The notes under the pieces were generated by a model. The model was not told where the DNA came from. It worked only from the letters and a program-made list of their open reading frames with translations, and searched no databases. Below, one piece after another: positions 2,656-51,280 of a stretch of 64,000 bases of DNA. The translations under genes were made by a program, and so were the position numbers. The number at the start of each line of letters is the position of its first letter. The stretch's first letter is position 1. Location of the stretch: positions 1 to 64,000 of the forward strand of contig CP142736.1 in the NCBI GenBank assembly GCA_036630325.1. The letters are read 5' to 3'. Source of the stretch: Vairimorpha necatrix (Eukaryota).

Positions 2656-5600
2656 TGTTATACATTTATTTAATAGGAAAGTTCAACCCTAACACCCTCC
2701 TCCAGACGTGTAGTCTCACGTTACAAGCTTCTAATTATTCATTTTTAAAATCTTTTAGGTCATAATGTCGTTTCTTAATGTATCTTCCGCTATCAGTCCT
2801 TACAATATAAGAATTATTCTCAGACTTTCCCCTCCTTTTATCAACATTTGTAAATCTTCCTTTCATACTTTTCATCTATTTACCCTTGTTTTCTCTTATT
2901 GCAATTCTCACAGCCTGATCTACTTCAAATTTTTCTCTATGCCTTAATTTAAAATTACTTGAATACACACCCTTTTTATTGTTTTCAATAAAGACTTATT
3001 TTCCTTGTTCTTTCCATGCTTCAATTGTGTTGAATTAATCGCTGTGTGTAAGAATTATTAGTTCTTACAGCTTGTTCTAGTTTTTCCTCTGGGTTTCCTT
3101 CTTTTTCATGGATCATCGATTCCCTTATTGTTCAAATACATCGTTCTATTCTTCCATTACTCCTATGAGCTTCTAAACCTACTTTCTATTGCATAATTTC
3201 GTTTACTTTACACCAAGTTACAAACTTATTACTGACAAATTCCTTACCGTTATCCGTAAAATATTCATCTGTGCATCCATCTTCCTTAAACAATTTTTTC
3301 TAAAATTTTCGTAATAACATCACTTCTCTCATTTTTCATCTTTGCGCCCCATACTCTTTTAGAAAAGTAGTCAGTCCCTGCATAGCAAGTATCTTTCTTT
3401 TTCTGCAATATCCATTACGTCTAAACTACTTTTTCTAATTTCTTGAATGTTGTTACAAAATTGCAACCTCAGGTCGCGTTTCTGTTATTAATGCTACATA
3501 CTTAACAATTTTTTAGCGATGTGGTTATCTGGTCCTTCATACCTGGCCAGTACCATCTTTGTATAATCTTATAATGTGTTCCCTTAACTCCTCGATGATT
3601 TAATTCCTCATGAACTCTACGAATTTCTGTTCTCACTTATTTCTTTGTGTTGTATTTATTAATTTCTCCTGTTGAAAACTTCCAATAGTTTTTACCTTTT
3701 CTATTAACAATGCTCTTTATTTCTTATCCTTTCATCTGTTTTTGGGCCGTTTCTACTTTCGCTTTTTTACTTTCACTTCGTTTTTTTAAATTGTCTACTA
3801 TGAGCATATAAATACGTGATCAATTCTCCTTTTACATATTCAAAAATAAAATCGAACTCTTGTATATATTCTATCCATCTCTTAATTATGTAATTATTGA
3901 AAAACGGTTTGTTTCTAATCTCGGCCAGTGATTAATGATCTGTTATTAAATGAATTTTTCTTCCTCACAAATCTGACTCAAATTTCTTTATTCCGAATAA
4001 CACTGCCAACATCTCTTTTTTACTAATCATATACTTTTTATCTGTTAATGTTATCATTTTTGATGCCCATTGTTTCAAATCCACCTATCTTCCTTGTCTT
4101 CTTGCAGAAGTATGGCTCCAATTGTCGTATCGCATGCATCCGTTCTTACTCTATAGATTTTTTTACTATCTACAATTTTAATTTTTTCATATCCTTCAAA
4201 CCAATTTTGATATCCATAAAAGCTCTTTCCATATATCGGATCATTCCCATTTACTATCTTTTTTTAGTGCTTCTGTAAGAAGCGCTGACCGATAAGCATA
4301 ATGAGAAATAAAATCTCTTAACCAGCCTGCCCGATCTCGTAAATCTTCTAAGATCTTTTATGTTGTTAGGCCTTTTGTATTTTAATGTCTTATGCTTTTT
4401 AATTTTGTTAGGTGTAATGTCTTCTCCGTTAATTGATACTCAAAGTAGTTATACTTCTTCTTTATATTGTATCTTTTAAGTTTCTTAAAATCCACATTCG
4501 TTAAATTTTCGAATTACTTGTTTTCTAGAATTTTCTTGTATTTTACTATCTCTTGCATGAATAATAATATCATACATGTACACCTTAACACTCTTGCCTC
4601 TAAACTTATCTAAAACTCCGTATATCACTCTTTGCATAATATGGGAAGCATTTTTAAATCCCTTTACCATGCCATTCCATTCGTAAACTCTATCATTTAT
4701 CTTAAAAGCTGTCTTATGTTTGTAAGTCTGTCAATTTCTATATGATAGAATCCTTCCTTTAGGTCTATAACCATAAATACTTTAGAATCTTGCGTTCCCC
4801 AATAATATCTCTAATCAATGGCAATTCATACGGATCTTTTTATTCCAGTTCATTATAAGCCATCAAATTGCTTCTCAATTGTACTTCACCATTTGGTAAT
4901 TCTATGGGCCTAATTGGGCTTATCCATTCGCTCTTTGTCCTTCTGATAATACCTCTACTTTAATAAATTAATATACTTTTCTCGATTATTATAAGAAATA
5001 TTTTTTACTTTTTTACTACTTTCACTCATTGTTTTGTTTTAAAAGAACATTTTATCCTTGTTAAGTATTTTATTTACTCTTCGTCTTTTCCTAATGCCTC
5101 AGGAAATTTTCCTTCCAATTCTTCATATTTATTAATATTTTTTCTTCTTTTATCTTGTTTCGTTTTTTTTACAAAAAAACTGTTTCTTGAGTTCTTCTTT
5201 CTACCTCCACTGGTAGTCTCAATTTAAAATCATTTCCTTTTAATATTTTCAATTTTCTATTATCACGAATGCCAAAATATTTTTCCCTTTTATTTTCATT
5301 ATTCTCTTCCTGTCTTCCTTTACGCTCCATACAATCTCTAGCTATATGTATAATTCTTCCACATATAAAACAATGGTTTTCTTCTCGTCTTTGATATTGA
5401 AAGTTTCTTCCCGGCACTGCTACAGTCCTAGTCAGTTATTCTTTAATCTCTTTTTTAATTTTTCTTTCATAACCTCTACCATATCTTCTAGTTTTCTACT
5501 CCTTAATTTTTCCTTGTTCTTATTCTCTTTCTTTTCAACAACTAATTTATCAATTTCATCAATAATATCATTCCAATTAATCATACTGATCAAATTTTTA

Positions 5601-5815
5601 TCAATAATAAAATCCTAAAGTTCAGAACTTACTTGTTTTATCGACTGCTTCGTTGTCACATCTTTTACATCTTTCTGCATTCCGATGATTGCTTCTACTC
5701 TCTGAGCTTCTTTTAGTAATTTTCTATCTCCTAAACACAGGTCTCACTTGTTACCCTTTCGTCTTTTGTGTTTGCCATGTTATACATTTATTTAATAGGA
5801 GGTTCAACTTTAACA
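2656..5815 (-). mobile_element. Decayed but full-length Ty3/Gypsy micro-LTR retrotransposon (element A, protease-less clade)
   Basis: TG..CA LTRs at 5778-5815 (38 bp) and 2656-2694 (39 bp), slightly diverged. 5-bp TSD TTATA at 2651-2655 and 5816-5820. PBS-like TGGCAAAC and PPT GGAGGAGGG are present. Fragments match element C: CFICGRIIHIARDC knuckle and the RT segment GFKNASHIMQRV. Many stops and frameshifts. Confidence 0.92.
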
Positions 5816-14800: not shown

Positions 14801-17800
14801 GTTTGTTATTTTGTTTTAAACAAAATATTTTTTTATCCAATCTATATATATTGCTGATGCAAGTTTTCTATTCAAATTTATTAACTTAAAAATTTCTACA
14901 TACATAGTTTTATGTCTAAAATGCAAGTAGTTTTTGATTTTTAAAGAGTGTGTTAGATTTGCATCATTTTAATGCTTGTATTATCTTTTTATTGTGGGTA
15001 CGTTTCTTGTCATTTTCAAATAATAATTGAAAATTATAAAAACTTAAAATTATTATATTTCAACATAATGTATTTTTAACTAGAATTTATCTTATTTTTT
15101 CTTTTGCACAGATACATTGAATCATGCGGCTTAACATAATATTCTAAACTTATAACAAGTTGATATTATTAATTCGACACGAATTGTACGTATTAAGCGT
15201 ATTTCATCTAGGTTTTCTAAGGTAATTTTCATATTTATTTCTTGTCTAGATTTTATCTACAATTGATATTTATTAAGAGAATACATCTCTATTAAAGAAT
15301 CAGTAGTACTATAATAACACAAAATTCTTAAATTTACCAAACATAAAACTTTTGTTTTGTTATACGATAGAAGATTAGGTTCTGATTTACGGAACAAACA
15401 AATAACTATGACAGTATTACTATTTTAAAAATGATATATTTGATTCTTGTTTTTTTTTACGAGGAATGTAAGCTATTGATTCTCTTAAAATAAATATTGG
15501 ACTGTTTTTTAAAGAAATTTATTCTTTTATTTTTTAAATATTAATTTCTCGCATATATATATTTTCGCCCTTAATATTATAAATGGCTTGAACATATTAT
15601 CCAATTGTTTTTGTAAGAAACGATATTTCGATAATCTTTCATCTAGGGATTTGTTTTTCTGCCAAAAAAAATTAGTGTACGGAATTTGCTTTTAGAAATA
15701 AGGGCGAAACGAGTTAATTGGCTTTTTCTGCATAATTTATTTGTGTCAAAATATTTTTAAATTAACTTATAATGTGAATATAATGCCCTTTTACTTTTTT
15801 TTTATGGAACAGAATTAAAATATGTGCATTTATTTTAAATTTTTAATTTACAACCAAATCAATCCCAGGAAGGTTAAGTCAAAATTTATGTCTGCAATTA
15901 TTAAATCCATGGTATAATATCTAATGTGAACGAATAAATTTGATTTAGTGTACAGTTTTATAACTATTTTTAGATCTGTAATCTTTTTATTTGTTTTTTT
16001 TCTATTATATATAACGTCCTCTTTTCTATTTGAATTTAGTATGATTTAGATAGTCTAATTATTTGCAAACAGAAAGTATATCTATTAGGGGGTGTAATTC
16101 AAAAATATATCTATTCAATTGTTTTTTAGGAAGGTTATATTTAAATGATCATACACCCCATTTTATGTAAAATACTTTTATATCTGAAATATTCAAAAAA
16201 TATAGTATCCCAAAATGAAGTTTTTTAATTGTCAAGATTATATAATTTTACAATAAAATGTTAACGTAATGAAGTCTAAACATATCAAATATTAAATTGC
16301 GGAATTCTATTACTCTATTGTATGGATGTTGTACAAAAATGGTTTTATTGTTAATTAAAATCACAAATAATTATAATCTCGTTATTTCCACTGTATTTTT
16401 CCTTTTTTTTCAACTTTTGTTCATTTACTATCTTATATAACTGATTATTTCTCTTCTATTTTTGGTTTTGTAAGTCAAAATTACTATATCAGTCCTATAG
16501 AATATTAATAATAGTATATTCACACTGACTAACTTTTCTTAGAGGATAAATAACGTGAATTTTATTTTTTTACTTGTCTCTAATTTTGTTTTTGGGTTTT
16601 ACTATTATCTTGCCAAAGAGAACAATGATTTGATTGTTTACAATACTTAATTTTCATCGATTAAGTTCTTTAATATAAATTGTTTATTCTTTTTACATAT
16701 GAAATATATTTTTCTTTATTAATTAATCGATATTATCATAACTCAGAAACTCAAAATTATCTTATGTTATATCATTAAAAACGTTATTGTTCAATATGTT
16801 AAGTCTGTACAAATAAAATATATGATGTAATTGATTCGGGGTATTTTAGTTTTTTTATACATAGATACATCAGATTGTTGCAATAAAAATGAACTTATTA
16901 ATATGATTTTTTTTTCTTAGTATATTATGGATATTTATATTAAGCACTTGGCATCTTAATCATATCTACACATATCTTAGTAAAAATTTATAAATTTTGT
17001 TGGCATTTTGAATTTCTAGTATCAAATAATTTTTATTTTATATACGAACTTCGAGGTTGATTTACGTCCTAAAAAAGAAATGTTTTGTTGTTTTCTTTTA
17101 GATTGTTCAATTTTGCTGCGCTTTTCGATCCTTAATGTTTAATCTTTCCTAGTCTTTCCCTAAAAGTGTCTTGTTTAAGTTAAATTTATAGACTAGTTGG
17201 AGATATTTAAAACACAAGAAACATTTGTTATATAATTCTTAAAATGTCTTTATTACATATATTTAATGCTCATTTTACCATTTAAAGCCAATCATTTCTT
17301 CAGTCTATCGATGTACAATCAATAATAGCTATTACTTTGGAAAGAACGTCTCGGTATGGAAATGACTCGTCACACATAGATTATTTAATTATGTAGTATT
17401 AATAAAAATCTTTTCAAAATAAAATTTTTTTTAATCATCTAGTTCGGTTGTTTAGATAAATATTTATATAACAATGTATTTAACAGTGTTTGTCGATTAA
17501 ACTATTTTTTTATGTTTCTCTATTATATATACTAACTTTACTTTGTTTGCAAGCGATAGATATAATTATAATTTCCCAATCGTAAAGGATATTAAGTCAT
17601 TTTATAAAGTTTTGTGCTTACAATACTGTTTATTCTGAATTTTAATGATGGATTATTTTCGTCTTGTTGATATTATTATCTCTTCTAAAATATATATACA
17701 TATACAAATGCATCTCTTCTTAATAATTAGTTGGTCGTTTAAAATGTCAAGAATAATTACTTTTAATCATTTATGATATAAGAGTTTGTTTGGAATATAT

Positions 17801-17802
17801 TA

Positions 17803-20800
17803 TGTTATATATTTTGATAATTTTTACCCCCATTATGATAAATAAATACATGGGGGCGATACCAAATCGAGAGTCAACAAGTGATGGCTGTGGTCAAGAG
17901 GCCAGAATAATGTTACAAGAAATTAAAAGAATAGTTTATAAGCTAGAGTTGGATGGAGTAGATGAGTCTCTATGGAAGGCAAGAATTTATGAAATGGGTT
18001 CGGAAGAAGTAAAGAACTTTATGGTAGAAAGAATTAAAAAAGAAGATAGTTGGTCCTTAATTATTGAAGAAATGGAAAATGAGGTTAGAAAGGACGAATT
18101 AAAAAAGAAGGAAGAAGAAGACAAAAGTAAGATGATGGAAATAATTGCAGAGTCGGTTAGAGGAACAGTTCGAGAGGAGCTGGCAAATAGAGGAGCATTA
18201 GGAAAAATAAGGGAAGAAACTACGAGAGTAAGAAGTAGAGATTGTTTTTACTGTGGTAGATTTGGGCACATGGCAAGAGATTGCTTCGTAAGGAAGAGGA
18301 AAGAAGAAGATAATAAAAATAAACATTTTAACAAGTATTTAAGGGTTCATGAAGAGAGTGGATCTACAACCACAGAACTTAGCGCACAAGAATATAGGAA
18401 ATGCGGAGAAGCAAAACGTAAACAAAATTCAAAAAGGAGAGGAATGAGAGAGGATAGAATAGAAGAGGGCCTTGTCATTGAAGATATAAAAGCGAAGTTT
18501 AGAGAAATTTTTGACTTGCAGCAGGAAGAGATCGTACACTGTAAGATAGAGAAATGTAAAATTGAGACGCCACCAGGGAAAAAAGTAGTTAAAAGAGGAC
18601 AAACTATCCCACAGGCGTTGATGGAAAATACTGAAAAATATATAAAAAGTTTGGAAGAAAGAAAAATTATAAGAAGATCAACATCCGAGTGGAGGAACCC
18701 AATTAGAGCTATAGTAAAACCTAACGGAGGAGTAAGGCTTGTAAGTAATCTAATGAGTTTAAATGACTTAGTTGAAAAAGATCCGTATGAGTTGTCAAAT
18801 ATTAGGGACATCGTTAGAGCCACACAGGGGTCTAAATGGTTTACCGTTATAGATCTGAAGGAAGGCTTTTACCACGTAGAGATTGAAGAAGAGGATAAGC
18901 ACAAAACGGCCTTTGAATTTAACAGAAAGGTATATGAATGGAACAGTATGGTAATGGGATATAAAAATTCCCCGCAGATATTACAACGAATAATGAACCA
19001 AATATTTGAAGATTTACAAGGAGAAGGAGTGGAGGTATATATGGACGACATCGTTATACACGCTAGAACTAAAAGAAGGCATGACAAGCTAGTTATAGAA
19101 GCATTGGAAAGATTAAAAAGACATAAAATGAGATTGAATATTGAGAAGATACAGTTTAGCCAACAGTTAGTTAAGCTCTTAGGAGTCACATTGAATGGTA
19201 CAGATATTGAAGCGAATGAAATAAAGAAGAACGAGGCGTTAGAATTCCCGCAGCCGACAAGTGTAAGTGAAACACGAAGATTCCTAGGAATGACAGGATG
19301 GTTTAGGAACTTTATAAAGAATTACGCGGGATTAACTATTCATCTGACAGATAGCTTGAGAGGTAAAGATAAGAAGTGGGAATGGACGGTTGAAATGAAT
19401 AGAGAGTTTTTAGAGCTGAAAGAAGTTTTGAGAGCGATGGGGAAACTTAGATTGCCTGATTATAGGAAGGAATTTATATTGAGAACGGACGCGAGCAATG
19501 TAGGGATAGGAGCCGTGTTACTTCAGAAGAACGATAAAGATGAATGGGTAGCAATCCAATGGAGTTCAAAAAAGTTAACACCTACAGAGACCAGATATAC
19601 TATATCGGAGAAAGAAATGTACGCGGTATTTTGGGGGATAAAAAGATTTGAATACGAGTTGCGCGGTAGGAAGTTTAAAATTGAGACGGACCATAAAGCC
19701 TTGGTTGAGATTAGAAATAAACCGTGTTTTAATAACAATAGAATAAATAGATGGATTGAAAAGATCCAGGAATTTGACTTCACCATAGAATATAAGAAAC
19801 CAGAAGAAATGGTGGTGGCTGACGCGTTAAGCAGGATACATATTGAAGACGATGAAAGGAAAAAGAAAATCAGAGAAAGGACCGCCAAGCAGATAGAGGG
19901 CAAATGGAAAGCGCACGTCGATGACGCAGAAGGGAAAAAATATTGGAGATTTGATTCAGGACGGAAAGTCGAGATACCACCAGAAGAGTCAAGGGAAAGT
20001 TTGATGCAGGAATACCACGAAAAAGTTGGACATAGATGTATGACAAGTGTATATTACGCGATGCGGGAAAGATTTTATTGGCCCGGAATAAAGAAAGACA
20101 TAAATGAGACAATTCGAAAGTGTGTACAATGTCAAATATAAAATAGAAAAAGACTCGGTGGATGTGAGTTTGTAGATACTACACGTTATTTAGAAAAGGT
20201 TGCTTTGGATCTCATTGATTTTAGAGACGCAGGTAAATACGTATTGGTTGCGATAGATTATTACACTCGAAGAGTATGGGGCACGGTAATGGAGAACAAG
20301 ACTGGAAAGAATGTGACAGAATTTTTAAGTAAGTTGTGTGAACAAGGAAAAAAGCCCGAAGAGATTATAACGGATAATGGGCGAGAATTTATCAATGAGG
20401 GGTTTAGAGAGTTGTGTAACAGACTAGAAATTAAACATAGGAAAGTAAGTGTCGAATCACACAGGAGTAATGGCAGAGTCGAGAGGGTTATAGGTACGCT
20501 GCGAGAGAGCATTCTGAAGACTAAAGAAGGTACATTTGCAGAGAAGGTCATGGGAAGCATTGAAAAATATAATATGAGTTACCACACGGCACTAAAATGT
20601 ACACAATAGAAGCGACAGAGGATAAAACTGGACATGTAATGATTGAAAATAGCCCACAAGGGAAATATGGAAAACTGTTTAACAGGGGGAAAAGGGAAAA
20701 ATTTAAAGTAGGTGAGTACGTGAGAGTAGCTAAGAAGGAAAACTTAAAAGGTGCGGCTAAATATTCGAAAGGTAGGTTTTTAGAGAGTGGGGAAATTATA

Positions 20801-20976
20801 GAGAGATGTGGCAATGATTCTTATATAGTTAAGTTAGTAAATGGAAGATATGTAAAGAAAAGGCATTATGATCTAAAAAGTCTGCTTGGGTTAAGGATAA
20901 AGTGAGACTAACCGTCTTGGAGGGGGAATGTTATATATTTTGATAATTTTTACCCCCATTATGATAAATAAATACA
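17803..20976 (+). mobile_element. Ty3/Gypsy micro-LTR retrotransposon (element B, protease-less clade)
   Basis: Identical 48-bp TG..CA LTRs at 17803-17850 and 20929-20976. TSD TATTA on both sides. PBS-like TGGGGGC directly after the 5' LTR and PPT GGAGGGGGAA before the 3' LTR. Confidence 0.97.
17850..20905 (+). pseudogene. Gag(CCHC)-RT-RNaseH-integrase polyprotein of element B, disrupted by one stop and one frameshift
   Basis: CFYCGRFGHMARDC knuckle; RT IDLKEGF and YMDD; RNase H TDAS, EKE, TDH, ADALSR; integrase HHCC and DLID, TDNG, VER. In-frame TAA at 20139-20141 and a frameshift near 20603. No D[TS]G protease motif. Confidence 0.92.
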
Positions 20977-22141
20977 TATTATTTTAAAGTGAGTATTTTC
21001 CTTGTTAATTATCATGATTTGCTTCTCTTTCTTTTTACATTTGTATATATACTTGTCATCTCTGAAAAATCTAAAATTTGAATCTCTAAAATTAGAAATT
21101 ATTGCATTTTATACTAATTATTTTTTCATAATTTTCTTTTCTGTCTTATTGTATATATATATATATGTAAATAGAATTTTCCTCATTTTAAAAATGAAAA
21201 TTTCAAAACCCATAAATTAGAAATTATTGCAATTTAGACAAATAAATTTTCATGATTTTTATCAACTTCTTTTTTTTTATAAATGTGTATATATTCTTTT
21301 CATCAATGAAAAAATAAAATCAAAATTATGTCATTTTAGATAATTTCTTTTTCATGATTATCCTTATTCTTGGTGTTTGAATATATATACTTGTCATCCT
21401 TAAAATATTAGCAATTTGGAAGTTCAAAAAAAAAATTATGACTTTTAGCCTTTATATACTATAAAATTTCATATTTTTTGCGAGTAGAAGGGAAGATATA
21501 ATCTTATACATGAACTCAAAAGAAATTGAGTTAACAATCCAATTGATATGGGGTATTTCTACTCACTTAACTATTACCGAATACTTGCGCTTCACTATCT
21601 CAGACGTAACTATTTAGATTTGATGAGAATATTTTTATATACAAGCCTCTAATCGCATCATTAAATCAATAAATATATTAAAATGAAGATTTTAAAATCT
21701 CTGTATAGATTTATCAGATTAATATAATGTCTATATAAAAATAAATCATCTAGATCCCAGATGGCTCTTTCTCTTACACAGAACACTAAAAGCAAACTTA
21801 TTAAACTTTTTTGAACTAATGAAATAATTGAACAGATCTCCATTTTATACTATATCTTGTTTGAAAGAAAACAAACTTCAAAAATTTTCACATCAAGAGT
21901 GGCATAATTGGCTTTTAGATCCCTATTAAATATACAGCTATGGTATTTTGAAACACAGAAGGACAAATTATATGTAAAAAAATTTGAATGTGAATATATT
22001 TCAGAAATTACTAATCAATTCATTTCAAGAATTACTTTCAATATATTTGTTTAGTCTATCAATTTTGAAATATTATATTTAGTGACGTCTGTATGTCCGC
22101 GAGTAGATATCTTTATACTTAGAATATAATTTAAATTTTAT

Positions 22142-27115: not shown

Positions 27116-29359
27116 ATGAATATAATCAAATTTTTTGTTGTAATTGGTTTGTAAAATCAAATATTAATATTTATAACAAAATAAATAAAATTATACTAAA
27201 GCAAATTGAAAATAGAAAGTATACAGTTTTTAACTTAAATAAGAAATATACTTAAATACAAATTTTTTGTAGGGAATATGATAAGACATTATGTTGTTCG
27301 CTTGTGAAAAATAATTTGAATGAAACTATTTCTAACGAATTTGGATATATAATTATTGATTATGCTAACAAATCCACTTATAATATTATTGAAGAAATAG
27401 AACAATTTATAAAGAAGATTAAATCGACTTTAAACATTGACTCTATCGTATTATTATATAGACAATCTAAATATCGACAAAGTAACAGAATTGTGAAAAA
27501 AATTATAGAAAAGTTAAATCAAATAAATGATGAAAGAAGAATAAAAAAGAAAGGAACCGAAATTTATTATGAAAATATTTGCGTTCGGGATTGTTTCTTA
27601 CACAATATCATTAAGAAGAAGCAAGAATTCGATTCAAAAAACGAATCTAGGGTGCAAGACCTAGAACCCATGATAATTTACAGCAGAAAAGAAGACGATA
27701 ATAGTTACTATTTCAGATTATGCATTGTAATTAAAAATATGTATTATTTGTTTGAATTTTATATAAACGAACTTGAAAATAAAAAACTTGATACTTTAGT
27801 TAAAATTAATGCAGAGAATATGTGTTATTATGACGCAAAAATATTAAAAAAATTATATGAAATTTTTAACGTCAATGATTTATATCATATTGAGGCAAGG
27901 GGCGAAATTAGATGTTTAGAAATTACACCAAACAAAATCGAAAAGATAATGCCTAAAAAATTCAAAATAGAGGTACACCCAAACTCTATAAACTTCTGTG
28001 ATGGATATAGAGAAAATTCTGTATATTTAAAAAATGATTCAAACAAGTATGATGGTGAAAAAAAATTTATTAACAATAATTTTTTTGATGAAATTAAGAA
28101 AATGTTGGAAAGGATTCATTTTATAGCGAATACAAAAGATTATAAATGTGTTGAATTTTTTTACAGATTACTAAAAAATTACAACAAAGTTGAATTTCTT
28201 ATAATGAGAATAATGAACAAACAAACATCTGCATTAAAAATAATATTTAATTGCATAATTAAGCATATGTACATTGTAGAGGAAGATGAATTGGATTACA
28301 CAACAGGTGAAATAATATTTAGATCAAATAATGAAGAAGATAATAAAAACAAAATTATAAATAAATTATCATATATATTGTCAGGGCTTCAATTTTCAGA
28401 TTGTTATTTAATAAAAATTTGCCTACTTTTGGAAGCAGAAGAATATATTAATAAAAAAAAACATAAACAACGAATATATTTGGGAATCATTAATAGATAT
28501 AAATGAATATATACGGGAGAAAAATAATGAAAAGATATCTCGTTCTGATGGAAAAAGCAGATGTATCAATATCTTAAAAATCATAAAGGAAGCAGAAAAT
28601 TACCATATTAACAATATTATAAAATATAAGAACGAAGTTTTGAAAAATGTCTGCAAAATAACATCATTATTTACAGGATTGGCTAGTTCGCGTTTTGTAT
28701 ACAAAGATACCAAGGAAGATTTCATAAGAAATGAAATTTGTGAAAACTTTCAACTTGATGGAAATGAGATAGAGGAAAAGGCCAATATTATAAAAAATAA
28801 TCTACAAAAAAATACAGATGAAGATGAAGAATATGAAAAAAGGAGAAAGTTAAAAGAGCAAGAAATAAAAAAAATAAGAGAAATGTTAAAAAACTCATCA
28901 TTAGATTATGATTTAAACATAATCAAATCAAATCCCTTGGAAGAAGAGCTTAAAGATATTTTCGACGAAGATATTAGAACATATTATGAAAATGAACAAA
29001 TAAAAAGAGGAAACATAATCATCGAAAATATATTTAATGAATTTATAAAAAAAAATGAAACACAAGAAGAATCAATAAATGATTATAAAAATGAAATAGA
29101 AGATGATTTTATACAAATTTTGAGAAATAATATAGAAGTTAGATTAAGAAAACAGGCCTCGATTGAATTACCTAAAGCTTTTAATAATTTATTTGAAAGT
29201 GAAATAAAAATATGTCACGTAGAAAAGGTTAAATTAAGAAAAAAATTTGCAAATGTTAAAATGATGTTAGATGAAACAATAATTCTAGAAATATTGAACA
29301 AGACTGAAGGAATAAAAATGCACGAATCATTTACTAAAGCTTTAGATACCTTTAAATAA
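27116..29359 (+). pseudogene. Disrupted large K/N/E/I-rich hypothetical protein, probably secreted (joins ORFs 27304-28506 and 28640-29359)
   Basis: GCCCCTA-ATG start context at 27116 and hydrophobic N-terminus MNIIKFFVVIG. Frameshift near 27150, in-frame TAA near 27253, and a frame switch at the A-run near 28452-28461. The 28640 frame is open back to about 28460. Confidence 0.6.
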
Positions 29360-37138: not shown

Positions 37139-40100
37139 TGTAGGGTTTAGAACCCTTAATAAATAAATGGTTAACATGGCGAACACAAGGATGAACAGGG
37201 AAACAAGAGAGTCCCGTAGTCAAGAGGCTAGAACATTAGAGAAAGAGGCAATTAGGATAGATAAGAGACTAAAGTTAATATTGTTAGTTGAAATTTGAGT
37301 GGAAAGATGTTATGGATTTGGCATCTGCGAACTTGCAGGATTATATTTTTGAAAATTTTTGTGACGGAAGGAGCAGTTGGGAGGAAATTTATAAAGGCTT
37401 ACAAAAAGGAGCAGAATTTGAGAGAGAGTCAGAAGAAAGACAAGAAATGATTAAAGAGATTATGGATAAAGTGTTGAAAGAGTTTAGGGAAGAAAGAAAA
37501 GAAAATCTTAGGATGTATAGGAAAAGAAGAGAAATCAGAGAAACTACAAAATGTTTTATATGTAAGAAAGAAGGGCATTACGCTAGAGAATGTCATGAAA
37601 GTGTAGCTGGTAGGGAAAAATATAAAATTAAAAAGGAACAAGTTTTACAGAAAGAACCAATTATCAACAATGAAGGGAAAAGATGTAAAACAGTAAATAA
37701 GTTAGAAAATTTAATTGAAAAGTATCCGGAAGTTTTTAAAGAATCAGAAGAAAAGATAAAATATCTCACAGGAGAGAAGTGTCCAATAAATACTAAGCAA
37801 GGTGAAAAGGTTGTGAAAAGAGGGCAGAATGTGCCATACTACCTTAGGGTGAAATTTGAGGAGTACTTGAATAAGTTGGAAAATAGAGGGGTTATAAGAC
37901 GTTCCAAAAGTGAGTGGAGGAGTCCAATAAGAGCACTTGAAAAACCAAATGGGGACGTAAGATTGGTAAGCAATTTGATGGCGTTAAACGATTTGGTTGA
38001 CAAGGACCCGTACTCACTACCGTTAATTAAGGATATTATGAGAGCCACGCAGGGGTCAAAAGTATTTACGGTTATCGACTTAAAAGAAGGGTTTTATCAT
38101 ATTGAGATTGAGGAGCACCATAAGCACAAAACAGCATTTGAAGTGAATGGTCGAGTATACGAATGGAATAGTATGGTTATGGGGTTTAAGAATTCGCCTC
38201 ATATAATGCAGAGAGTAATGAACAGAGTTTTAGATGAATTCAGAGGTAAAGGCGTGGAAGTATATATGGATGATATAGTTATTCATGGTAAAGACGTAAG
38301 AGTGCATGACGAGTTACTAGAGAGGGTAATTAAAAAGTTTAAAGAGTGTGGGTTGAGAATAAACCAAACAAAGATACAATACAAAAAAGATGAGGTGATG
38401 TTGCTGGGAGTAACAATTAATGGGGAGGTCATGGGACCGAATGAGATTAAAAAGCAGGAGACATTGGAATATAGAAAACCTGAGAATGTTAGAGAGTTAA
38501 GAAGATTTTTAGGACTAACTGGTTGGTTTAGAGACTTTATTCCCAACTATGCGTATAGAACAGTAAGGCTTACTGAGGCTTTAAAGAAAGATGTTAAATG
38601 GAATTGGACGGAGGATATGGAAAGAGCTTTTGAGGATATGAAGCAAGGCTTGAGAGATATGAAAAAGTTGAAGATTCCGGACGGAAAAAAGCTATTTAGA
38701 GTAAGAACTGATGCGTGTGATACGGGGATCGGAGCAATTCTATTACAAGAAAATAAAGAGGGTGAGTGGATTCCGATACAATGGGCATCGAAAATGTTGA
38801 CTCCTACCGAGCGAAGATATACGATAAGTGAGAAGGAGATGTTGGCGGTGTTTTTTGGAATAAAGAAGTTTGAAAGTGATTTGAGAGGAAGGAAATTTCA
38901 TTTGATGACGGATCATAAAGCATTAGCAGAGATCAGAAATAAGCCATACTTCAATAATAACAGAATAAACAGATGGGTAGAACAGATACAAGAGTTTGAC
39001 TTTACAATAGAGTATGTGAAAGGGGAGTTGATGACAGATGCAGATGCGTTAAGCAGGCAGTATGATCAGGTAGAAGTTTCGGATGAACAAAAAGAAAAGG
39101 ACAACAAGAGAAAAGAAGTGATCGAAAAACAAATTTTGGGAAAAAAGCAGAAACATATTAAAGAAAAGGACGGTAAACAGTATTGGGAATTTTCCACAGG
39201 TGAGGTGAAAGAGATATTGAGCCTAGATAGTAGAGAACATGAAATAACAAGAGTACATGAGGAGTTAAACCATAGAGGTGTCAAAGGCACTTATTATAAC
39301 ATTAAACAAAGATGGTATTGGCCTGGTATGAAAGATCATATTAATAAGGTAATTAAGAATTGTGAAATATGTGGGATTAACAATAGGAAAAACACAGGAG
39401 GATGTGATTTCGTAGTAACTAGAAAGAAATTGGAGAAAGTGGCGTTGGATTTAATGGACATAGGTGGAGAGAATAGGTATGTGTTACTGGGTATTGATTA
39501 CTTTACTAGAAGGTTGTGGGGTTCGAATTTGAGATGTAAAGAGAGTAGTGAAGTTATAGAGGTATTACAAAAGTGGAAAAGGGAAGATGGATTTCCAGAG
39601 GAATATGTGACAGACAACGGAAAAGAGTTTGTAAGTAATAGATTTAAAGAATGGTGTAGTATTAATGATATTAAACATAGGAAAGTGGGCTTAGAAGCTC
39701 ATAGGAGTAATGGTAGAATCGAGAGATGCATCAGAACTATAAGAGAGACATTGATAAAGCAAAATGATGGGAATATTTCTGAAAAGATAGAAAGAGCAAT
39801 CAAAGGATATAATAATACACTACATACAGCAATAAAATGTACGCCGATGGAAGCGTGGAGAGATCAAACTGCTGAAGTTATAATTGAAAATGATGAAAAT
39901 GGAAAATATGCTGGTCGGTTCAAGAGAAGACACAGAGAGACATTTACAGTAGGCCAAGAGGTAAGAATCGCTAGGAGAGAAAATTTAGGTACACGTGCGA
40001 AAACAGACAAGGGAAGATTCACGGGTCGCGGAAGGATCGTAGCTATAAGTGAAAATGATTCATATATTGTGAGACTACTGGATGGTAAAATTGTTAAAAA

Positions 40101-40211
40101 GAGGCATTATGATTTGAAAGAGATAAGGAAGAGTTGTTTAGAAGATGGAGAGACTACCCGTCTGGAGGGGGGATGTAGGGTTTAGAACCCTTAATAAATA
40201 AATGGTTAACA
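37139..40211 (+). mobile_element. Ty3/Gypsy micro-LTR retrotransposon (element C, protease-less clade)
   Basis: Identical 38-bp LTRs TGTAGGGTTTAGAACCCTTAATAAATAAATGGTTAACA at 37139-37176 and 40174-40211. PBS-like TGGCGAAC and PPT GGAGGGGGGA. Flanks TTTTC and TAAAA do not form a TSD. Confidence 0.97.
37176..40185 (+). CDS. Gag(CCHC)-RT-RNaseH-integrase polyprotein of element C, with one frame change near 37287
   Basis: The 965-codon frame 37288-40185 carries CFICKKEGHYAREC, YMDD, TDAC/TDH, HHCC and DDE. The upstream frame from ATG 37176 (MANTR..QEARTLEKE) aligns with the element B N-terminus (QEARIMLQE). The stop lies inside the 3' LTR. Confidence 0.88.
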
Positions 40212-44369: not shown

Positions 44370-47300
44370 TGTCGTATCCTTCTATAAATATTATATATTT
44401 TCACCCCCATGCAATTCGTAAATAAAGGAACATTCGACATGGCGACAGCGATAAAAACTGTTGGCTGCTTCAGTGGAAAGAAGGAAGAGGATATAAATAC
44501 ATGGTTGCGTGACACAACGTTCACGGCGAGGGTTATGGGACTGACAGAAGATCAGACCGCCAGACTTATCTGCCTGGGTCTACGGGGGCCAGCTCTCTCA
44601 TGGATAGCAATGGCATTTGAACGGGTGTCAGAACTTGATCTGGCAGAGGTTACTAAGAGTCTAAAATTGAGATTTTACAGTTCACAGAAAACTCTGGCCA
44701 CTCTAGACGAGTTTGTTAAACCGCAACAATTTGGCAACCTAGAGGCTTTCATAGACTTCTGCAGGAAAGGAAACTCACTTATAGAGCAACAAACAATGGA
44801 GTACAAAGCAGTCAGCCTCATAGTAATCAAGAAGTCTCCTTCGGTCCTCAAATCAATTCTTTATGATTTTGCTAGACAATGCCAAGATTGGAGTGAATTC
44901 CTGAGGCGCACAGAGGAAGTTTCTTGGATAGCATTCCCTATGAAAAGTAACACGACTAATACGGACGAGACACTAGATAACAGGACTTTGAAGGTCGCAC
45001 CATCGAAGAAGGGAAATATACCCTACACCATAGAAAACTACAAGATCAACAGCTGTTTCACTAATCCTTGCTACATAAACGTAGAATTCAATCGTAAACG
45101 ACATCGAGCATTAATTGATACCGGAGCTGATGTCTCCCTGATACCCGCAAGAGTCCTCGAAGGGACAAATATCAGATTTACCAGATCTTCAACGATCATA
45201 CGAGCAGCATCAGGGACACCATTGGAGATTACAGGAAGATGTCTAAATATCAATTTTAGGAAGGAAAACACTTCAATTACTTTCAGCCCTTACGTCACAG
45301 AACGGACACCGGACTACATAATCTTAGGAGTTGACGCTATACGAACGAACCCCATATTACTGGAACAACTGATCAGAAAATTCGCCAATACAGTCAAGAA
45401 AGGCTCACTGATTAACAAAGTCAATTACATCTCAATCGAAGAGAAATACCATGACATGTTCAAAACTGAAATTTCAGAGCTTACACTTTGTAACATGGGG
45501 AAACATCAAATCGAGACAACAGTAGCGAAGGCAATTTACCAGAAAAATGGAAAGATCCCTCTGCACTTTGAAGAGGAAATCACACAACAGATCAAGAAGA
45601 ACTTGCAGTTGGGCGTAATAAGAAATAGTAGGAGCCCCTGGAACAGTAGAGTTGTTCCGGTAACGAAACCTGATGGGTCGATCAGGCTCTGTATAGATTA
45701 CAGAGAGCTCAACAAGATAACAGTCAAAGATAAATACCCCCTCCCACGAATTGATGAAATTCTCGACGATCTAGCTGACGCTACTATCTTTTCGACATTA
45801 GATGCTACGTCGGGATATTATCAGATAGCCCTTGAAGAAGTAGACAAGGAGAAGACAGCATTCAGCTGGAGAGGAGGACATTATGAATTTAACAGGATGC
45901 CGTTTGGGCTATGTAATGCCCCTGCTACTTTTCAGAGAACTATGGATAAGATTTTTGTGAAAGAAAACAGAAAATTCGTCATACCATACTTGGATGACAT
46001 TATTATCTATTCTAAAAATCACCAGGAACACCGTGAACACTTGGAAATCGTATTGGGTAAGCTTAAGGCAGCAGGAATCGCACTTAACAGAAAGAAGTGC
46101 CACTTCTTCAAAGAAGAAATTAAAATTCTAGGGAATATAGTAACAAACAAGACGATCAAACCGGACCCAGAGAAGGTCAAAGCCATAAACGAGTATAAGG
46201 AGCCGACGAATGTTGCTCAACTACGGTCGTTTCTTGGGCTCATAAATTACTGTAGGGAGTTCATCCGTAACTTATCAGCGATAGCAGCCCCTCTCTACGA
46301 ACTGTTTAAAGGAGAGTCAAAGCGAAGTGTTAAGAGTATTTCTCTCAGCAAAAAGGAGAAACGGGCGTTCGAAGATCTAAAGAGACTTCTCACAGAAGAG
46401 ACAATAAGATACAAGATTAATCTCAGGAAACCGTTTATATTGACTACGGATGCGTCAGAGCAGGGAATAGGCGCGATCCTCTCACAGATTGGAGATGATG
46501 GGAAGGAGCACTTCGTAAGTGCATTCAGCAAAAGTTTAGAGAAAGCCCATAAGAACTACTCTACAACAGACAAAGAACTCTTGGCCGTTGTAAAAGGCAT
46601 CGAGAACTATAGACACTACCTCCTGGGTAGAGAGTTCATATTGAAGACGGACCACAAAGCGCTGACTTATCTATGGGAAGCTAAGAATCCTACCAGTAGA
46701 TTGCTGAGGTGGGCAATGAAGTTGCAGGAGTATGCATTTCAATCAACCTACATAAAAGGAGAGGTTAATGGAGCAGACGGGTTAAGCAGACAAAACCCGA
46801 CAGAGAAAGATATAAATATCATCGAAGCTACAGGACCAAGCGATGAAGACAGACAGAAGATCTTAGAATCCTACCATCTAGACGTTGGACATGCTAGCGC
46901 TAGTACGATGAGCTTCATGATTTCACAAAGGTACAAATGGGCAGGAATGCATAAGGACATCAAGGAACACGTAGAAAAGTGTAAAACGTGCTTGAAATCG
47001 GGATACCCATTACGAAACACAAAAAACAAAGTTATACGATCAGAAAGGCCGAACCAAATATGGGGGATAGATCTCATAGGACGCATATGCGACACTTCGG
47101 GTCAAAACAGCTTCATATTCATTGCTATTGACCACTACTCTAAATGGGTCGAGACGGCTGTTATTAACTATAAAACAGGGTCGAAAATAATGGGATTAAT
47201 CCAGCAATTGATTATCGAGAAACACGGCATTCCAGAAAGAATCTTGACTGACAACGGGCTAGAATTTATAAATTCTGACATCAAAGACCTGGCCGAAAAG

Positions 47301-47914
47301 AACGGTATTGACTGGCAATACAGTTCACCAGAACATCACGAAACTGTAGGCGCAGTAGAAAGAGCGAATCAGACGTTAATGAAGATACTAAATAAAATTA
47401 CAGATTTCGGAAGGGTAAGCTGGAAGAACAAGCTTCCAGAAGCCACGAGATGCCTCAACCTGTCTTATAATCGGAGCATAGGAACATCGCCGTTCATGTT
47501 AAGGGAGAATAAATTGCCGATGCTGTCTGTAGACAAAGCGCTAGACAAGGAAGAAGTGACATTCTCAGCGGAGGAAACGAAGAGTAAGCGCGATGAAAAC
47601 TTCGAAAAGTACAAAAAAGCAATCGTGAAAGGGAAAGTAGAGGTGGCGAAAAAGCTAAACGTGGGCGATAAAGTTTTAATATATCGTGAGACTAAAAGCG
47701 GGAAGTTCAAGTGCAATTGGGAAGATGGATACGTGATCACAGAAATAATTTTACCCGATGCCTATGTGGTAAAAAAGAATGGAAAAGTATACAGGCTTAA
47801 CAAAACACGAGTTAAAGCAGATACTTCAATTTAGGGGGGAGAGGTGTCGTATCCTTCTATAAATATTATATATTTTCACCCCCATGCAATTCGTAAATAA
47901 AGGAACATTCGACA
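44370..47914 (+). mobile_element. Intact Ty3/Gypsy micro-LTR retrotransposon (element D, protease-containing lineage)
   Basis: Identical 70-bp LTRs at 44370-44439 and 47845-47914 (TGTCG..CGACA). TSD ATAGT on both sides. PBS-like TGGCGACAGC and PPT AGGGGGGAGAGG. Confidence 0.98.
44409..47834 (+). CDS. Single-ORF Gag-PR-RT-RNaseH-integrase polyprotein of element D (1141 aa; alternative start 44439)
   Basis: Capsid-like FSG..W..LRGPALSW; protease ALIDTGADVS; RT RLCIDYRELN, MPFGL and YLDD; RNase H TDAS and TDH; integrase HHCC, IDL, TDNG and VER. No CCHC knuckle and no chromodomain. Confidence 0.97.
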   Translation: MQFVNKGTFDMATAIKTVGCFSGKKEEDINTWLRDTTFTARVMGLTEDQTARLICLGLRGPALSWIAMAFERVSELDLAEVTKSLKLRFYSSQKTLATLDEFVKPQQFGNLEAFIDFCRKGNSLIEQQTMEYKAVSLIVIKKSPSVLKSILYDFARQCQDWSEFLRRTEEVSWIAFPMKSNTTNTDETLDNRTLKVAPSKKGNIPYTIENYKINSCFTNPCYINVEFNRKRHRALIDTGADVSLIPARVLEGTNIRFTRSSTIIRAASGTPLEITGRCLNINFRKENTSITFSPYVTERTPDYIILGVDAIRTNPILLEQLIRKFANTVKKGSLINKVNYISIEEKYHDMFKTEISELTLCNMGKHQIETTVAKAIYQKNGKIPLHFEEEITQQIKKNLQLGVIRNSRSPWNSRVVPVTKPDGSIRLCIDYRELNKITVKDKYPLPRIDEILDDLADATIFSTLDATSGYYQIALEEVDKEKTAFSWRGGHYEFNRMPFGLCNAPATFQRTMDKIFVKENRKFVIPYLDDIIIYSKNHQEHREHLEIVLGKLKAAGIALNRKKCHFFKEEIKILGNIVTNKTIKPDPEKVKAINEYKEPTNVAQLRSFLGLINYCREFIRNLSAIAAPLYELFKGESKRSVKSISLSKKEKRAFEDLKRLLTEETIRYKINLRKPFILTTDASEQGIGAILSQIGDDGKEHFVSAFSKSLEKAHKNYSTTDKELLAVVKGIENYRHYLLGREFILKTDHKALTYLWEAKNPTSRLLRWAMKLQEYAFQSTYIKGEVNGADGLSRQNPTEKDINIIEATGPSDEDRQKILESYHLDVGHASASTMSFMISQRYKWAGMHKDIKEHVEKCKTCLKSGYPLRNTKNKVIRSERPNQIWGIDLIGRICDTSGQNSFIFIAIDHYSKWVETAVINYKTGSKIMGLIQQLIIEKHGIPERILTDNGLEFINSDIKDLAEKNGIDWQYSSPEHHETVGAVERANQTLMKILNKITDFGRVSWKNKLPEATRCLNLSYNRSIGTSPFMLRENKLPMLSVDKALDKEEVTFSAEETKSKRDENFEKYKKAIVKGKVEVAKKLNVGDKVLIYRETKSGKFKCNWEDGYVITEIILPDAYVVKKNGKVYRLNKTRVKADTSI

Positions 47915-50557: not shown

Positions 50558-51280
50558 TTATCCTCGACTTCCTGCAAAGGGAATTTCTTTTATGTTTTTA
50601 ATTTTAACTGTTGAATACATTTCCTCGCTAAATAATTGCGTAACATGCCATGGACATGATTCTTTTATTCTAACTTCAATAAATCCGTAAACAAGCTTTT
50701 TAATTTTTTTAATTTCTTTATAATCTTCAAATGTAGAATAAAAACTTAAATCAAAAATTAAATCATAGCTATGATATGCTAAAACTTCAATAAGATGACC
50801 AATGGGATTCAACCTTACTTTTGTTTGCTGGTTCGTTAAAAAGTTCGTTACAAATATTTTAAAATAATAGCTCAAGTCGTGTACGTGCTGATTCTTATTC
50901 ATTTTAGTTGTTATTGATACAATTTCAATAATATCCTTTTGAGACATTATAGCATCAAACACAACATCAGATGCTTTAAGTATTGTTTCCCATTTAATTA
51001 CATTATAAATAATTTTTTTAGGTATAAATTCAAAGTTTTCATAACATTCGAATATTTCTCTAGTCGACGTATTATCATACCAAGAATTATAATAATCAAC
51101 TGTAACGGACTTATGATTTATATCAAAAGGTACAGCTACTTGATTACTTTGGAATTTTCTGTTGTCATACATTAATTCACTATTGTTAAGCGAAATATTG
51201 AACTCAGAATGTCCTTCATTGCCAAAACGTGAATTGATTATAGAGCTAGATACTTTTAATACTGCAGTAAGCAAAAACAT
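50558..51280 (-). CDS. Hypothetical protein, 240 aa, probably secreted
   Basis: Intact ORF in very AT-rich DNA. AAACCCCTAAA precedes the ATG. Short hydrophobic N-terminus MFLLTAVLKVSSS. No recognisable domain. Confidence 0.8.
   Translation of the reverse strand: MFLLTAVLKVSSSIINSRFGNEGHSEFNISLNNSELMYDNRKFQSNQVAVPFDINHKSVTVDYYNSWYDNTSTREIFECYENFEFIPKKIIYNVIKWETILKASDVVFDAIMSQKDIIEIVSITTKMNKNQHVHDLSYYFKIFVTNFLTNQQTKVRLNPIGHLIEVLAYHSYDLIFDLSFYSTFEDYKEIKKIKKLVYGFIEVRIKESCPWHVTQLFSEEMYSTVKIKNIKEIPFAGSRG

Follow-up and report, generated by a model that had tools for sequence, protein, structure and literature searches.

We analysed a stretch of 64,000 nucleotides from the microsporidian Vairimorpha necatrix (GenBank assembly GCA_036630325.1, contig CP142736.1, positions 1 to 64,000 of the forward strand; hereafter the window). 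A preliminary description, made from the letters alone, had noted three diverged copies, A, B and C, of a retroelement that seemed to lack a protease and nearly to lack a capsid. We find that A, B and C are very compact Ty3/gypsy-type long terminal repeat (LTR) retrotransposons of 3073-3174 bp, with LTRs of only 38-48 bp and ~50% protein identity to one another, and that they belong to a lineage from which retropepsin, the aspartic protease of such elements, is absent. Element B, which is complete, carries the following features (aa, amino acids; RT, reverse transcriptase):

17803-20976, plus strand: element B, complete LTR retrotransposon, 3174 bp, with LTRs, 5-bp target duplication, primer-binding site (PBS) and polypurine tract (PPT)
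17798-17802 and 20977-20981: target-site duplication TATTA, in the flanks GAATATATTA / TATTATTTTA
17803-17850, plus strand: 5' LTR, 48 nt, TG..CA, holding AATTTTTACCCCC, an in-frame ATG and AATAAA
17850-17852, plus strand: start codon across the LTR/PBS junction, with A from the LTR end and TG from the PBS
17851-17863, plus strand: PBS TGGGGGCGATACC, adjoining the 5' LTR
17850-18242, plus strand: N-terminal helical domain, aa 1-131 (AlphaFold2)
18243-18284, plus strand: CCHC zinc knuckle, aa 132-145 (Pfam zf-CCHC, 23.2 bits)
18285-18476, plus strand: linker at the usual place of the protease, 47% charged residues, without a protease match
18477-20905, plus strand: RT, RNase H and integrase (RVT_1 18714-19193; RNase H 19458-19775; integrase zinc domain 19977-20135)
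20919-20928, plus strand: PPT GGAGGGGGAA, adjoining the 3' LTR
20929-20976, plus strand: 3' LTR, the same 48 nt as the 5' copy, with no differences

RT begins at about aa 210 of the B polyprotein, and the frame carries two lesions, one stop codon (20139-20141) and one frameshift (~20573-20609). The integrase core lies beyond the stop codon, outside the piece that was scanned with Pfam. Antisense frames in B (18347-20578) were taken as artefacts of composition, as C is without them and the coding strand is purine-rich. B and the relatives P0011, P0013, P0018 and P0121 share a subfamily N-terminus, MGA(I/Q/T)P.. (17850-17870 in B), in which the glycine at position 2 would permit N-myristoylation, provided that the junction ATG is used. 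The motif AATTTTTACCCCC in the LTR was recognized as microsporidian promoter-like by comparison with the upstream sequences of ribosomal-protein genes tabulated in PMC2803860.

Element C is likewise complete, and element A is a degraded copy on the opposite strand:

37139-40211, plus strand: element C, complete, 3073 bp
37139-37176 and 40174-40211, plus strand: C LTRs, identical, 38 nt, the 5' copy adjoined by the PBS TGGCGAACAC
37288-40185, plus strand: C open frame, 965 codons
37549-37593, plus strand: C CCHC knuckle
37594-37720, plus strand: C linker, 42 codons, then RT-type sequence
37939-38418, 38605-38997 and 39232-39681, plus strand: C RVT_1, RNase H and integrase
40164-40173, plus strand: C PPT GGAGGGGGGA
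2656-5815, minus strand: element A, a degraded copy of 3160 bp, interrupted by many frameshifts and stops; target duplication TATAA, PBS TGGCAAACAC
5778-5815 (38 nt) and 2656-2694 (39 nt), minus strand: A LTRs, with few mismatches between the copies
~5331-5372, minus strand: A CCHC knuckle
2695-2703, minus strand: A PPT GGAGGAGGG

In C, a frameshift near 37270 severs the first ~38 codons (ATG at 37176, in another frame) from the rest. The layout that the preliminary description had attributed to all three copies, a helical N-terminus and one CCHC knuckle followed by a charged linker that leads straight into RT, is borne out for B by AlphaFold2 and Pfam and for C by Pfam and tblastn.

The termini of the elements are those of LTR retrotransposons in miniature. 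Each of the B and C LTR sequences occurs exactly twice in the window, where none is expected (100 shuffles), and all of the A, B and C LTRs (38/39, 48 and 38 nt) have TGT..ACA ends. Over seven LTR copies the initial TGT, the TAAAT within AATAAA and the final ACA are invariant. The B LTR reads AATTTTTACCCCCATTATG...AATAAA, also written ...GATAATTTTTACCCCCATTATGATAAATAAATACA; the LTRs of C, A and the related contig L001 have GGG and CC(C) motifs, then TTAAATAAAT. Target duplications of 5 bp are present at A and B, a PBS beginning TGG adjoins the LTR in five of five elements, and a G-rich purine tract (GGAGGGGGAA and similar) precedes the 3' LTR. In A, B and C an ATG in the polyprotein frame spans the end of the LTR, which provides its A, and the PBS, which provides its TG, and a methionine followed by alanine or glycine stands at this junction in 13 of the 16 N-termini aligned. 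Mini-LTRs recur in relatives: L001 has a 38-nt 3' LTR after GGAGGAGGGGA, L005 has one of 49 nt, and a reversed copy in L004 also has 49 nt. The LTRs, PBSs and PPTs of the three elements are additions to the preliminary description, as are the lesions of B and C and the protease-bearing neighbour that is introduced below.

We looked for the missing protease at several levels. Pfam, at E-values up to 1, assigns no protease family to B or C; it assigns zf-CCHC, RVT_1, RT_RNaseH and Integrase_H2C2 to both, and additionally rve to C. In precomputed lists, the 49 closest database relatives (38-84% identical) are all without a protease Pfam family, and among the next 71, more distant matches 30 have one, as counted from the table and with PF08284 taken by us to be a protease family. 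The preliminary description had named a protease at the linker position of close relatives as a finding that would speak against it; no such relative was found among the 49. A fresh Pfam scan of five proteins with long or odd N-termini (P0036, P0043, P0045, P0010 and P0022) also returned no protease, and the same database assigns RVP, gag-asp_proteas, PNMA and Retrotrans_gag to the outgroup protein P0077.

Spacing and motifs agree with the domain searches. From the end of the CCHC knuckle to the RT motif we measured 150-294 aa in 35 members of the lineage, with at most 204 aa in 32 of them, versus 251-481 aa in the 14 protease-type outgroup proteins that have both marks. P0036 is the lone case of a long spacer, and its insert is K/E-rich and of low complexity; over the lineage the low-complexity linker ranges from ~30 to 250 aa. 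A retropepsin-type motif (two hydrophobic residues, then D[TS]G[ASC]) upstream of RT occurs in 0 of 49 members. The looser D[TS]G is present ahead of RT in 2 of 47, once inside a serine run and once 12 residues before RT. Motif scans, Pfam, spacing and the predicted disorder of the B linker thus all agree with the original observation that the linkers of A, B and C have neither a D[TS]G motif nor room for a protease fold.

Structure prediction leads to the same result. In the AlphaFold2 model of B, aa 13-129 are helical, with pLDDT >90 at least over aa 20-110 (helices 13-35, 39-49 and 52-61, then a 62-residue helix, 68-129), aa 146-159 form a short helix, and aa 159-208 have pLDDT <50 and are predicted to be disordered. 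Foldseek returns no match to the B model at E ≤ 0.001, and merely weak RT matches otherwise. A cryptic protease fold in the N-terminus, the other finding that would have told against the preliminary description, was therefore sought with AlphaFold2, Foldseek and a wide structural search on B, and none was seen. We also compared a profile of the N-terminal domain with 1.84 billion representative sequences. It matched 72 proteins, namely 69 of 42-381 aa, the clade members P0047 and P0049, and one unrelated repeat protein of 2011 aa; scanning ten of these matches (the nine longest fragments and the repeat protein) revealed a protease in none.

The window itself supplies a positive control, in the form of a second kind of Ty3/gypsy element:

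44370-47914, plus strand: Ty3/gypsy comparison element with protease, apparently intact, 3545 bp, with a 1148-codon open frame
44370-44439 and 47845-47914, plus strand: its LTRs, identical, 70 nt, with target duplication ATAGT

This neighbour likewise has an ATG at the junction of LTR and PBS, with a CCCCC motif immediately 5' of an upstream in-frame ATG, and over Pol it is 29% identical to the protease-less lineage. Its coding region (44388-47834) scores four protease families in Pfam, including gag-asp_proteas and RVP. When its first 340 aa were folded from an 18-sequence alignment, the model gave 204 Foldseek matches at E ≤ 0.001, with Ddi1 and retroviral proteases on top. VIA-align places the retropepsin at aa 215-329, with Z up to 11.7, and a capsid lobe at aa 8-94 matches the capsids of dArc1, copia, Ty1, PEG10 and MLV at Z 8.0-8.9. 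Because the fold search detected the protease of the neighbour, the method would have revealed one in B. The neighbour also marks where the protease of C ought to lie: in tblastn, aa 117 of C aligns to the neighbour at position 45363 (~aa 326), just past its protease at aa 230-320. The C linker at 37594-37720, in which the preliminary description had seen no room for a protease, is indeed only 42 codons long before sequence of the post-protease type begins. Taken together, these searches indicate that retropepsin is absent throughout the lineage.

The "near-capsid-less" label given earlier fared less simply. Pfam finds no gag family in B or C, and among 16 N-termini no Pfam family appears in more than one member. 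With hhalign, the N-terminus of the lineage matches canonical gag N-termini at a probability of 0.65%, and a profile search of PDB sequences gives a best E-value of 0.039, with all matches to unrelated proteins. The label is supported only in part, as one lobe may survive: in the structural search with B, Arc capsid lobes make up 3 of the 50 rows listed (Z 6.1, 5.7 and 5.2 over aa 10-84), which is weak and within the noise of helical models, the top rows being unrelated helical proteins at Z 6.2-6.3. By language-model features, aa 1-157 of B lie near short CCHC/gag proteins (0.88-0.93; a lead only). The B model thus suggests a strongly reduced Gag in which one capsid-like lobe may remain. We note separately that the proteins P0043 and P0045, of ~1000 aa, are without protease and CCHC knuckle and have a different N-terminus of ~240 aa, in which Gag may have been reduced along another path.

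We then asked how the lineage is related to other Ty3/gypsy elements. Its database relatives come from Nosema (Nosema granulosis by name), V. necatrix, Enteropsectra breve and metagenomes; no relative was found in a collection of viral contigs. The relatives L001 and L002 sit on contigs of metagenome bins from a species-representative genome collection, where the bins bear the titles Clostridium sp. and Turicibacter sp., and these contigs are probably eukaryotic contamination of AT-rich bacterial bins.

A tree was made from 75 rows and 807 RT-RNase H-integrase columns (MAFFT alignment; IQ-TREE quick search, LG+G4, with SH-aLRT support) and rooted at the midpoint; left out were 15 of the 49 close relatives, which are shorter than 860 aa, and 33 of the 71 distant ones, which were thinned by hand and are mostly near-duplicate fungal Tf2. 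On this tree 34 members, including B and C, share one branch with an SH-aLRT of 99. The sister of this clade is the pair P0043/P0045 (joint support 100, stem length 0.68), and the next outgroup is P0100/P0077/P0087, of which P0077 bears a protease. The protease-bearing neighbour places among the remaining Ty3/gypsy rows, and the nearest outgroups are Ty3/gypsy elements that bear names such as Tf2, 17.6 and opus. The phylogeny proposed in the preliminary description, with protease presence mapped on it, thus returns a protease-less clade with its sister pair, beyond which the next outgroup carries the protease. The tree can be read as a single loss, because all other Ty3/gypsy elements carry the protease.

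Members of the clade are ~45-50% identical and occur in several genera, and dozens of relatives have open frames of ~1000 codons. The C, C, H and C of the knuckle are invariant in 27 sequences. As had been proposed for B and C, the catalytic residues of all three enzymes are kept: the Y-DD of RT, the D/E/D of RNase H and the HHCC and D,D,E columns of integrase vary little or not at all among 27-28 aligned members. Between C and L001, the proportion of non-synonymous differences (pN) lies at 0.14-0.24 for RT, RNase H and integrase, where pS, the proportion of synonymous differences, is 0.72-0.83; for the knuckle together with the linker pN reaches 0.37. Overall pS is 0.66-0.83, which is saturated. 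Given this saturation, which affects RT and RNase H, we quote only pN and pS, and no dN/dS. By these comparisons non-synonymous change appears strongly constrained in the lineage. The earlier proposal of a propagating lineage, as opposed to a one-off deletion, is therefore upheld by the absence of a protease in all 49 relatives, by the clade support, by the long open frames and by the low pN. We conclude from tree and conservation that this is an old, propagating and monophyletic protease-less lineage in microsporidia, nested among protease-bearing elements.

There are also signs of recent insertion. We compared public contigs from two runs (X1 and X2) over positions 17000-21800. Contigs of X2, an independent run, diverge from the window exactly at 17802/17803 and at 17850/17851, that is, at both edges of the B 5' LTR, and therefore point to other insertion sites. 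One X1 contig of 3101 nt spans 17834-20933 with 15 differences and one gap, and both this contig and contigs of X2 are open at the stop codon and at the frameshift that interrupt B. Together with the other insertion sites and the identical LTRs of B and of C, these open copies suggest that the lineage is still mobile. Both termini of the X1 contig lie inside LTRs, and contig ends of this kind probably explain why many relatives are found on contigs of 3.0-3.2 kb. A contig of X2 connects 17763 with 21028 (skip 3264, side 30); we did not count it as an empty site, as it does not match a precise excision. Summed contig depth in X2 is 1.7 thousand to 364 thousand over 17805-21024, versus 40-600 in the flanks, with peaks at the N-terminal/CCHC part (17966-18287) and at the 3' end (20542-20863). 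A very large number of copies, derivatives with internal deletions, or RNA could each account for this pattern, the run being only guessed to be DNA.

How LTRs of this size might work is suggested by the gene structure of the host. As described in PMC2803860, microsporidia have 5' untranslated regions shorter than 7 nt, a CCC-like motif just 5' of the ATG and an AAUAAA poly(A) signal; the same source gives an AAATTT-like signal upstream of ribosomal-protein genes, one instance being AATTTTTTTTACCCCACAA ahead of the ATG in N. ceranae. Since microsporidian promoters and 5' leaders are so small, ~40 bp would suffice for a promoter of the host type together with a start site and a signal for poly(A) addition. 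We propose that the mini-LTR would be a complete U3-R(-U5) unit, in which the AT-rich/CCC motif would drive transcription from a few bases upstream of the ATG, the AATAAA of the same LTR would direct 3' end formation, and an R of roughly 15-20 nt would remain for strand transfer. B, C and A each have a further ATG within the LTR that shares the reading frame of the junction ATG, so that the AATAAA itself falls within the translated frame. A paired primer tRNA would cover the start codon, and a given RNA molecule should then be either primed or translated, but not both. No tRNA genes are found in the window. The protease-bearing neighbour has the same design with a 70-nt LTR, and the mini-LTR is therefore better seen as an adaptation of Ty3 elements in microsporidia generally than as a consequence of protease loss.

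What, then, does the lineage do without a protease? The reading that we consider somewhat probable is that the polyprotein acts independently of retropepsin maturation. The tethered nucleocapsid-RT-RNase H-integrase polyprotein would bind its own RNA and work without being matured by a retropepsin, and host proteases may trim it at the disordered linkers. We favour this reading because the lineage keeps every other function, has diversified across genera and shows no detectable Gag similarity to a potential donor of protease. In a stronger version, which we put forward tentatively and which is possible but less than probable, this is a minimal autonomous LTR retroelement of 3.1 kb, with no retropepsin and no closed two-lobed capsid, whose uncleaved polyprotein would assemble on its own RNA and whose 38-48-bp LTRs would be the shortest functional U3-R units known.

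Several points weigh against this interpretation. Studied retroviruses and Ty elements need their protease for infectivity or transposition, and the window also contains an intact protease-bearing Ty3 element whose LTRs follow the same design, so that protease is available in trans. At least one frame lesion is present in each of A, B and C in the assembly, and no target duplication is seen in the flanks of C (TTTTC versus TAAAA). The AlphaFold2 model of B comes from a shallow alignment of 27 sequences and has a pTM of 0.38. A search for the reverse complement of the B PBS in the bins of L001 and L002 gave three matches, all attributable to chance and none in a tRNA. Finally, the uncleaved state of the polyprotein is argued from sequence, as are the limits of U3, R and U5, the transcript start and the poly(A) site of the LTRs.

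The strongest competitor, which we nevertheless hold to be rather unlikely, is that the protease was lost and that protease-bearing Ty3 elements of the same genome, for instance the one at 44370-47914, provide the retropepsin for maturation and perhaps the capsid too. Such a donor is at hand only 4 kb downstream of C, with its intact 1148 codons, gag-like and retropepsin folds, identical LTRs and target duplication, and it shares the mini-LTR and junction-ATG design and is therefore expressed by the same host rules. Against this, the protease-less clade is deep and diverse, at the identities given above and in several genera, and it keeps a Gag-like domain together with RT, RNase H and integrase. 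The low identity between donor and lineage over Pol and the hhalign result for their N-termini make co-assembly or shared cleavage sites less likely, and no conserved motif resembling a cleavage site is seen in the variable linker.

A second alternative, that the elements are dead relics of an extinct family, in which case the missing protease would be irrelevant to present function, is improbable. It draws on the heavy degradation of A and on the one or two frame lesions in each of B and C. It is countered by the identical LTRs in B and in C and the clean target duplication at B, by the copies in two public runs that are open at both B lesions, by the signs of other insertion sites, and by the dozens of relatives with ~1000-codon frames under strong constraint on non-synonymous change. 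Lastly, a cryptic or unconventional protease, or a self-cleaving peptide, in the N-terminus or linker is very improbable: nothing speaks for it beyond an N-terminus of ~130 aa without an assigned family, and that N-terminus is modelled with high confidence as all-helical next to a disordered, low-complexity linker of varying length, with no protease match in Pfam or PDB and no NPGP-type 2A motif in any of 51 members.

Comparison with known systems supports the assignment to Ty3/gypsy elements and sharpens the differences. With Ty3, Tf1/Tf2 and canonical Metaviridae the lineage shares TG..CA LTRs, PBS, PPT, 5-bp duplications, the order RT-RNase H-integrase, an HHCC and DDE integrase and the CCHC knuckle. 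Unlike canonical Ty3/gypsy elements, which are of ~5 kb, it has no retropepsin, a Gag of ~145 aa, LTRs of 38-49 bp versus hundreds of bp, and a length of 3.1 kb. Tf1-type self-priming involves a transcript 5' end that is complementary to the PBS over ~11 nt; in five elements, the longest complementarity of the LTR to the 18 nt that follow it is 0-6 nt. DIRS/Ngaro elements and hepadnaviruses replicate without an aspartic protease of their own, and are built differently: DIRS/Ngaro elements have a tyrosine recombinase and different repeats, and in hepadnaviruses core and polymerase are separate proteins, whereas the lineage described here has a DDE integrase, direct LTRs and one fused frame. A DIRS/Ngaro identity was rejected on the presence of the Integrase_H2C2 and rve domains. 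A TRIM/LARD/SMART identity was rejected as well, since RT, RNase H and integrase are encoded in full and their catalytic residues are conserved. Within the TRIM/SMART class, FRetro129 (described in PMC3281118 as the smallest LTR retrotransposon as of 2012, with 85-bp repeats) shares the very short repeats, the TGT..ACA ends and the 5-bp duplications; it is non-coding and non-autonomous, whereas the lineage of A, B and C encodes RT, RNase H and integrase between repeats of half that length.

Previous accounts of microsporidian elements fit this picture in part. Parisot et al. 2014 (PMC4202319) describe three microsporidia-specific Ty3/gypsy groups, with the same RT/RNase H/integrase family and with one polyprotein frame in place of a gag and a pol frame; PMC13174016 likewise gives a single polyprotein frame. 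The words protease, capsid and zinc do not occur in the main text of PMC4202319. The order Gag-protease-RT-RNase H-integrase is reported in PMC2474625, with reference to Xu 2006, for "nearly all" of the N. bombycis elements (Nbr). In the literature that we searched we found no protease-less Ty3/gypsy lineage and no LTRs below 50 bp in microsporidia; Xu et al. 2006 and supplements lay outside that search and may contain either.

The remainder of the window provides the setting of these elements. It starts with an irregular telomeric CCTAA/CCTA array of ~2.49 kb (1-2494; TTAGG/TAGG units), a TTAGG-type telomere in agreement with the account in PMC13174016 of that branch of microsporidia, and the 3' LTR of A (2656) is only ~160 bp away from the array. 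G+C content is ~23% over the remaining window, and islands of 37-41% coincide with the retroelements. On the minus strand, 58755-60216 is a fourth Ty3-like RT/integrase remnant, degraded and more distant (27-42% identity to C, piecewise; RVT_1 at 59646-59987 with E 6e-17). Two overlapping frames at 56744-57828 with a weak match to the hAT dimerisation domain (E 0.0015) are probably a broken hAT transposase. A gene for a HECT-domain ubiquitin ligase (62756-64000, E 2e-58), truncated by the end of the window, is the sole clear host gene scanned, and for the long N/K/I-rich open frames at 27256-29359 and 50558-51289 (minus strand) Pfam finds no family.

All superfamilies of LTR retrotransposons, and the retroviruses, are regarded as having an aspartic protease among their standard modules, and maturation of the polyprotein is regarded as essential. 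A deep, mobile-looking lineage without the protease would mean that maturation is dispensable, or that it has been outsourced over a very long time; if the minimal autonomous version of our proposal is true, then both the protease and a full capsid would be dispensable for LTR retrotransposition. LTR-finding programs usually set a minimum LTR length of 100 bp; LTRs of 38-48 bp fall below it, which probably leaves elements of this kind under-annotated in the genomes of microsporidia. These LTRs are about half as long as the shortest that we found in print (85 bp, PMC3281118). With 3.1 kb and one protein, the lineage may offer a naturally minimal system for the minimal needs of reverse transcription and integration.

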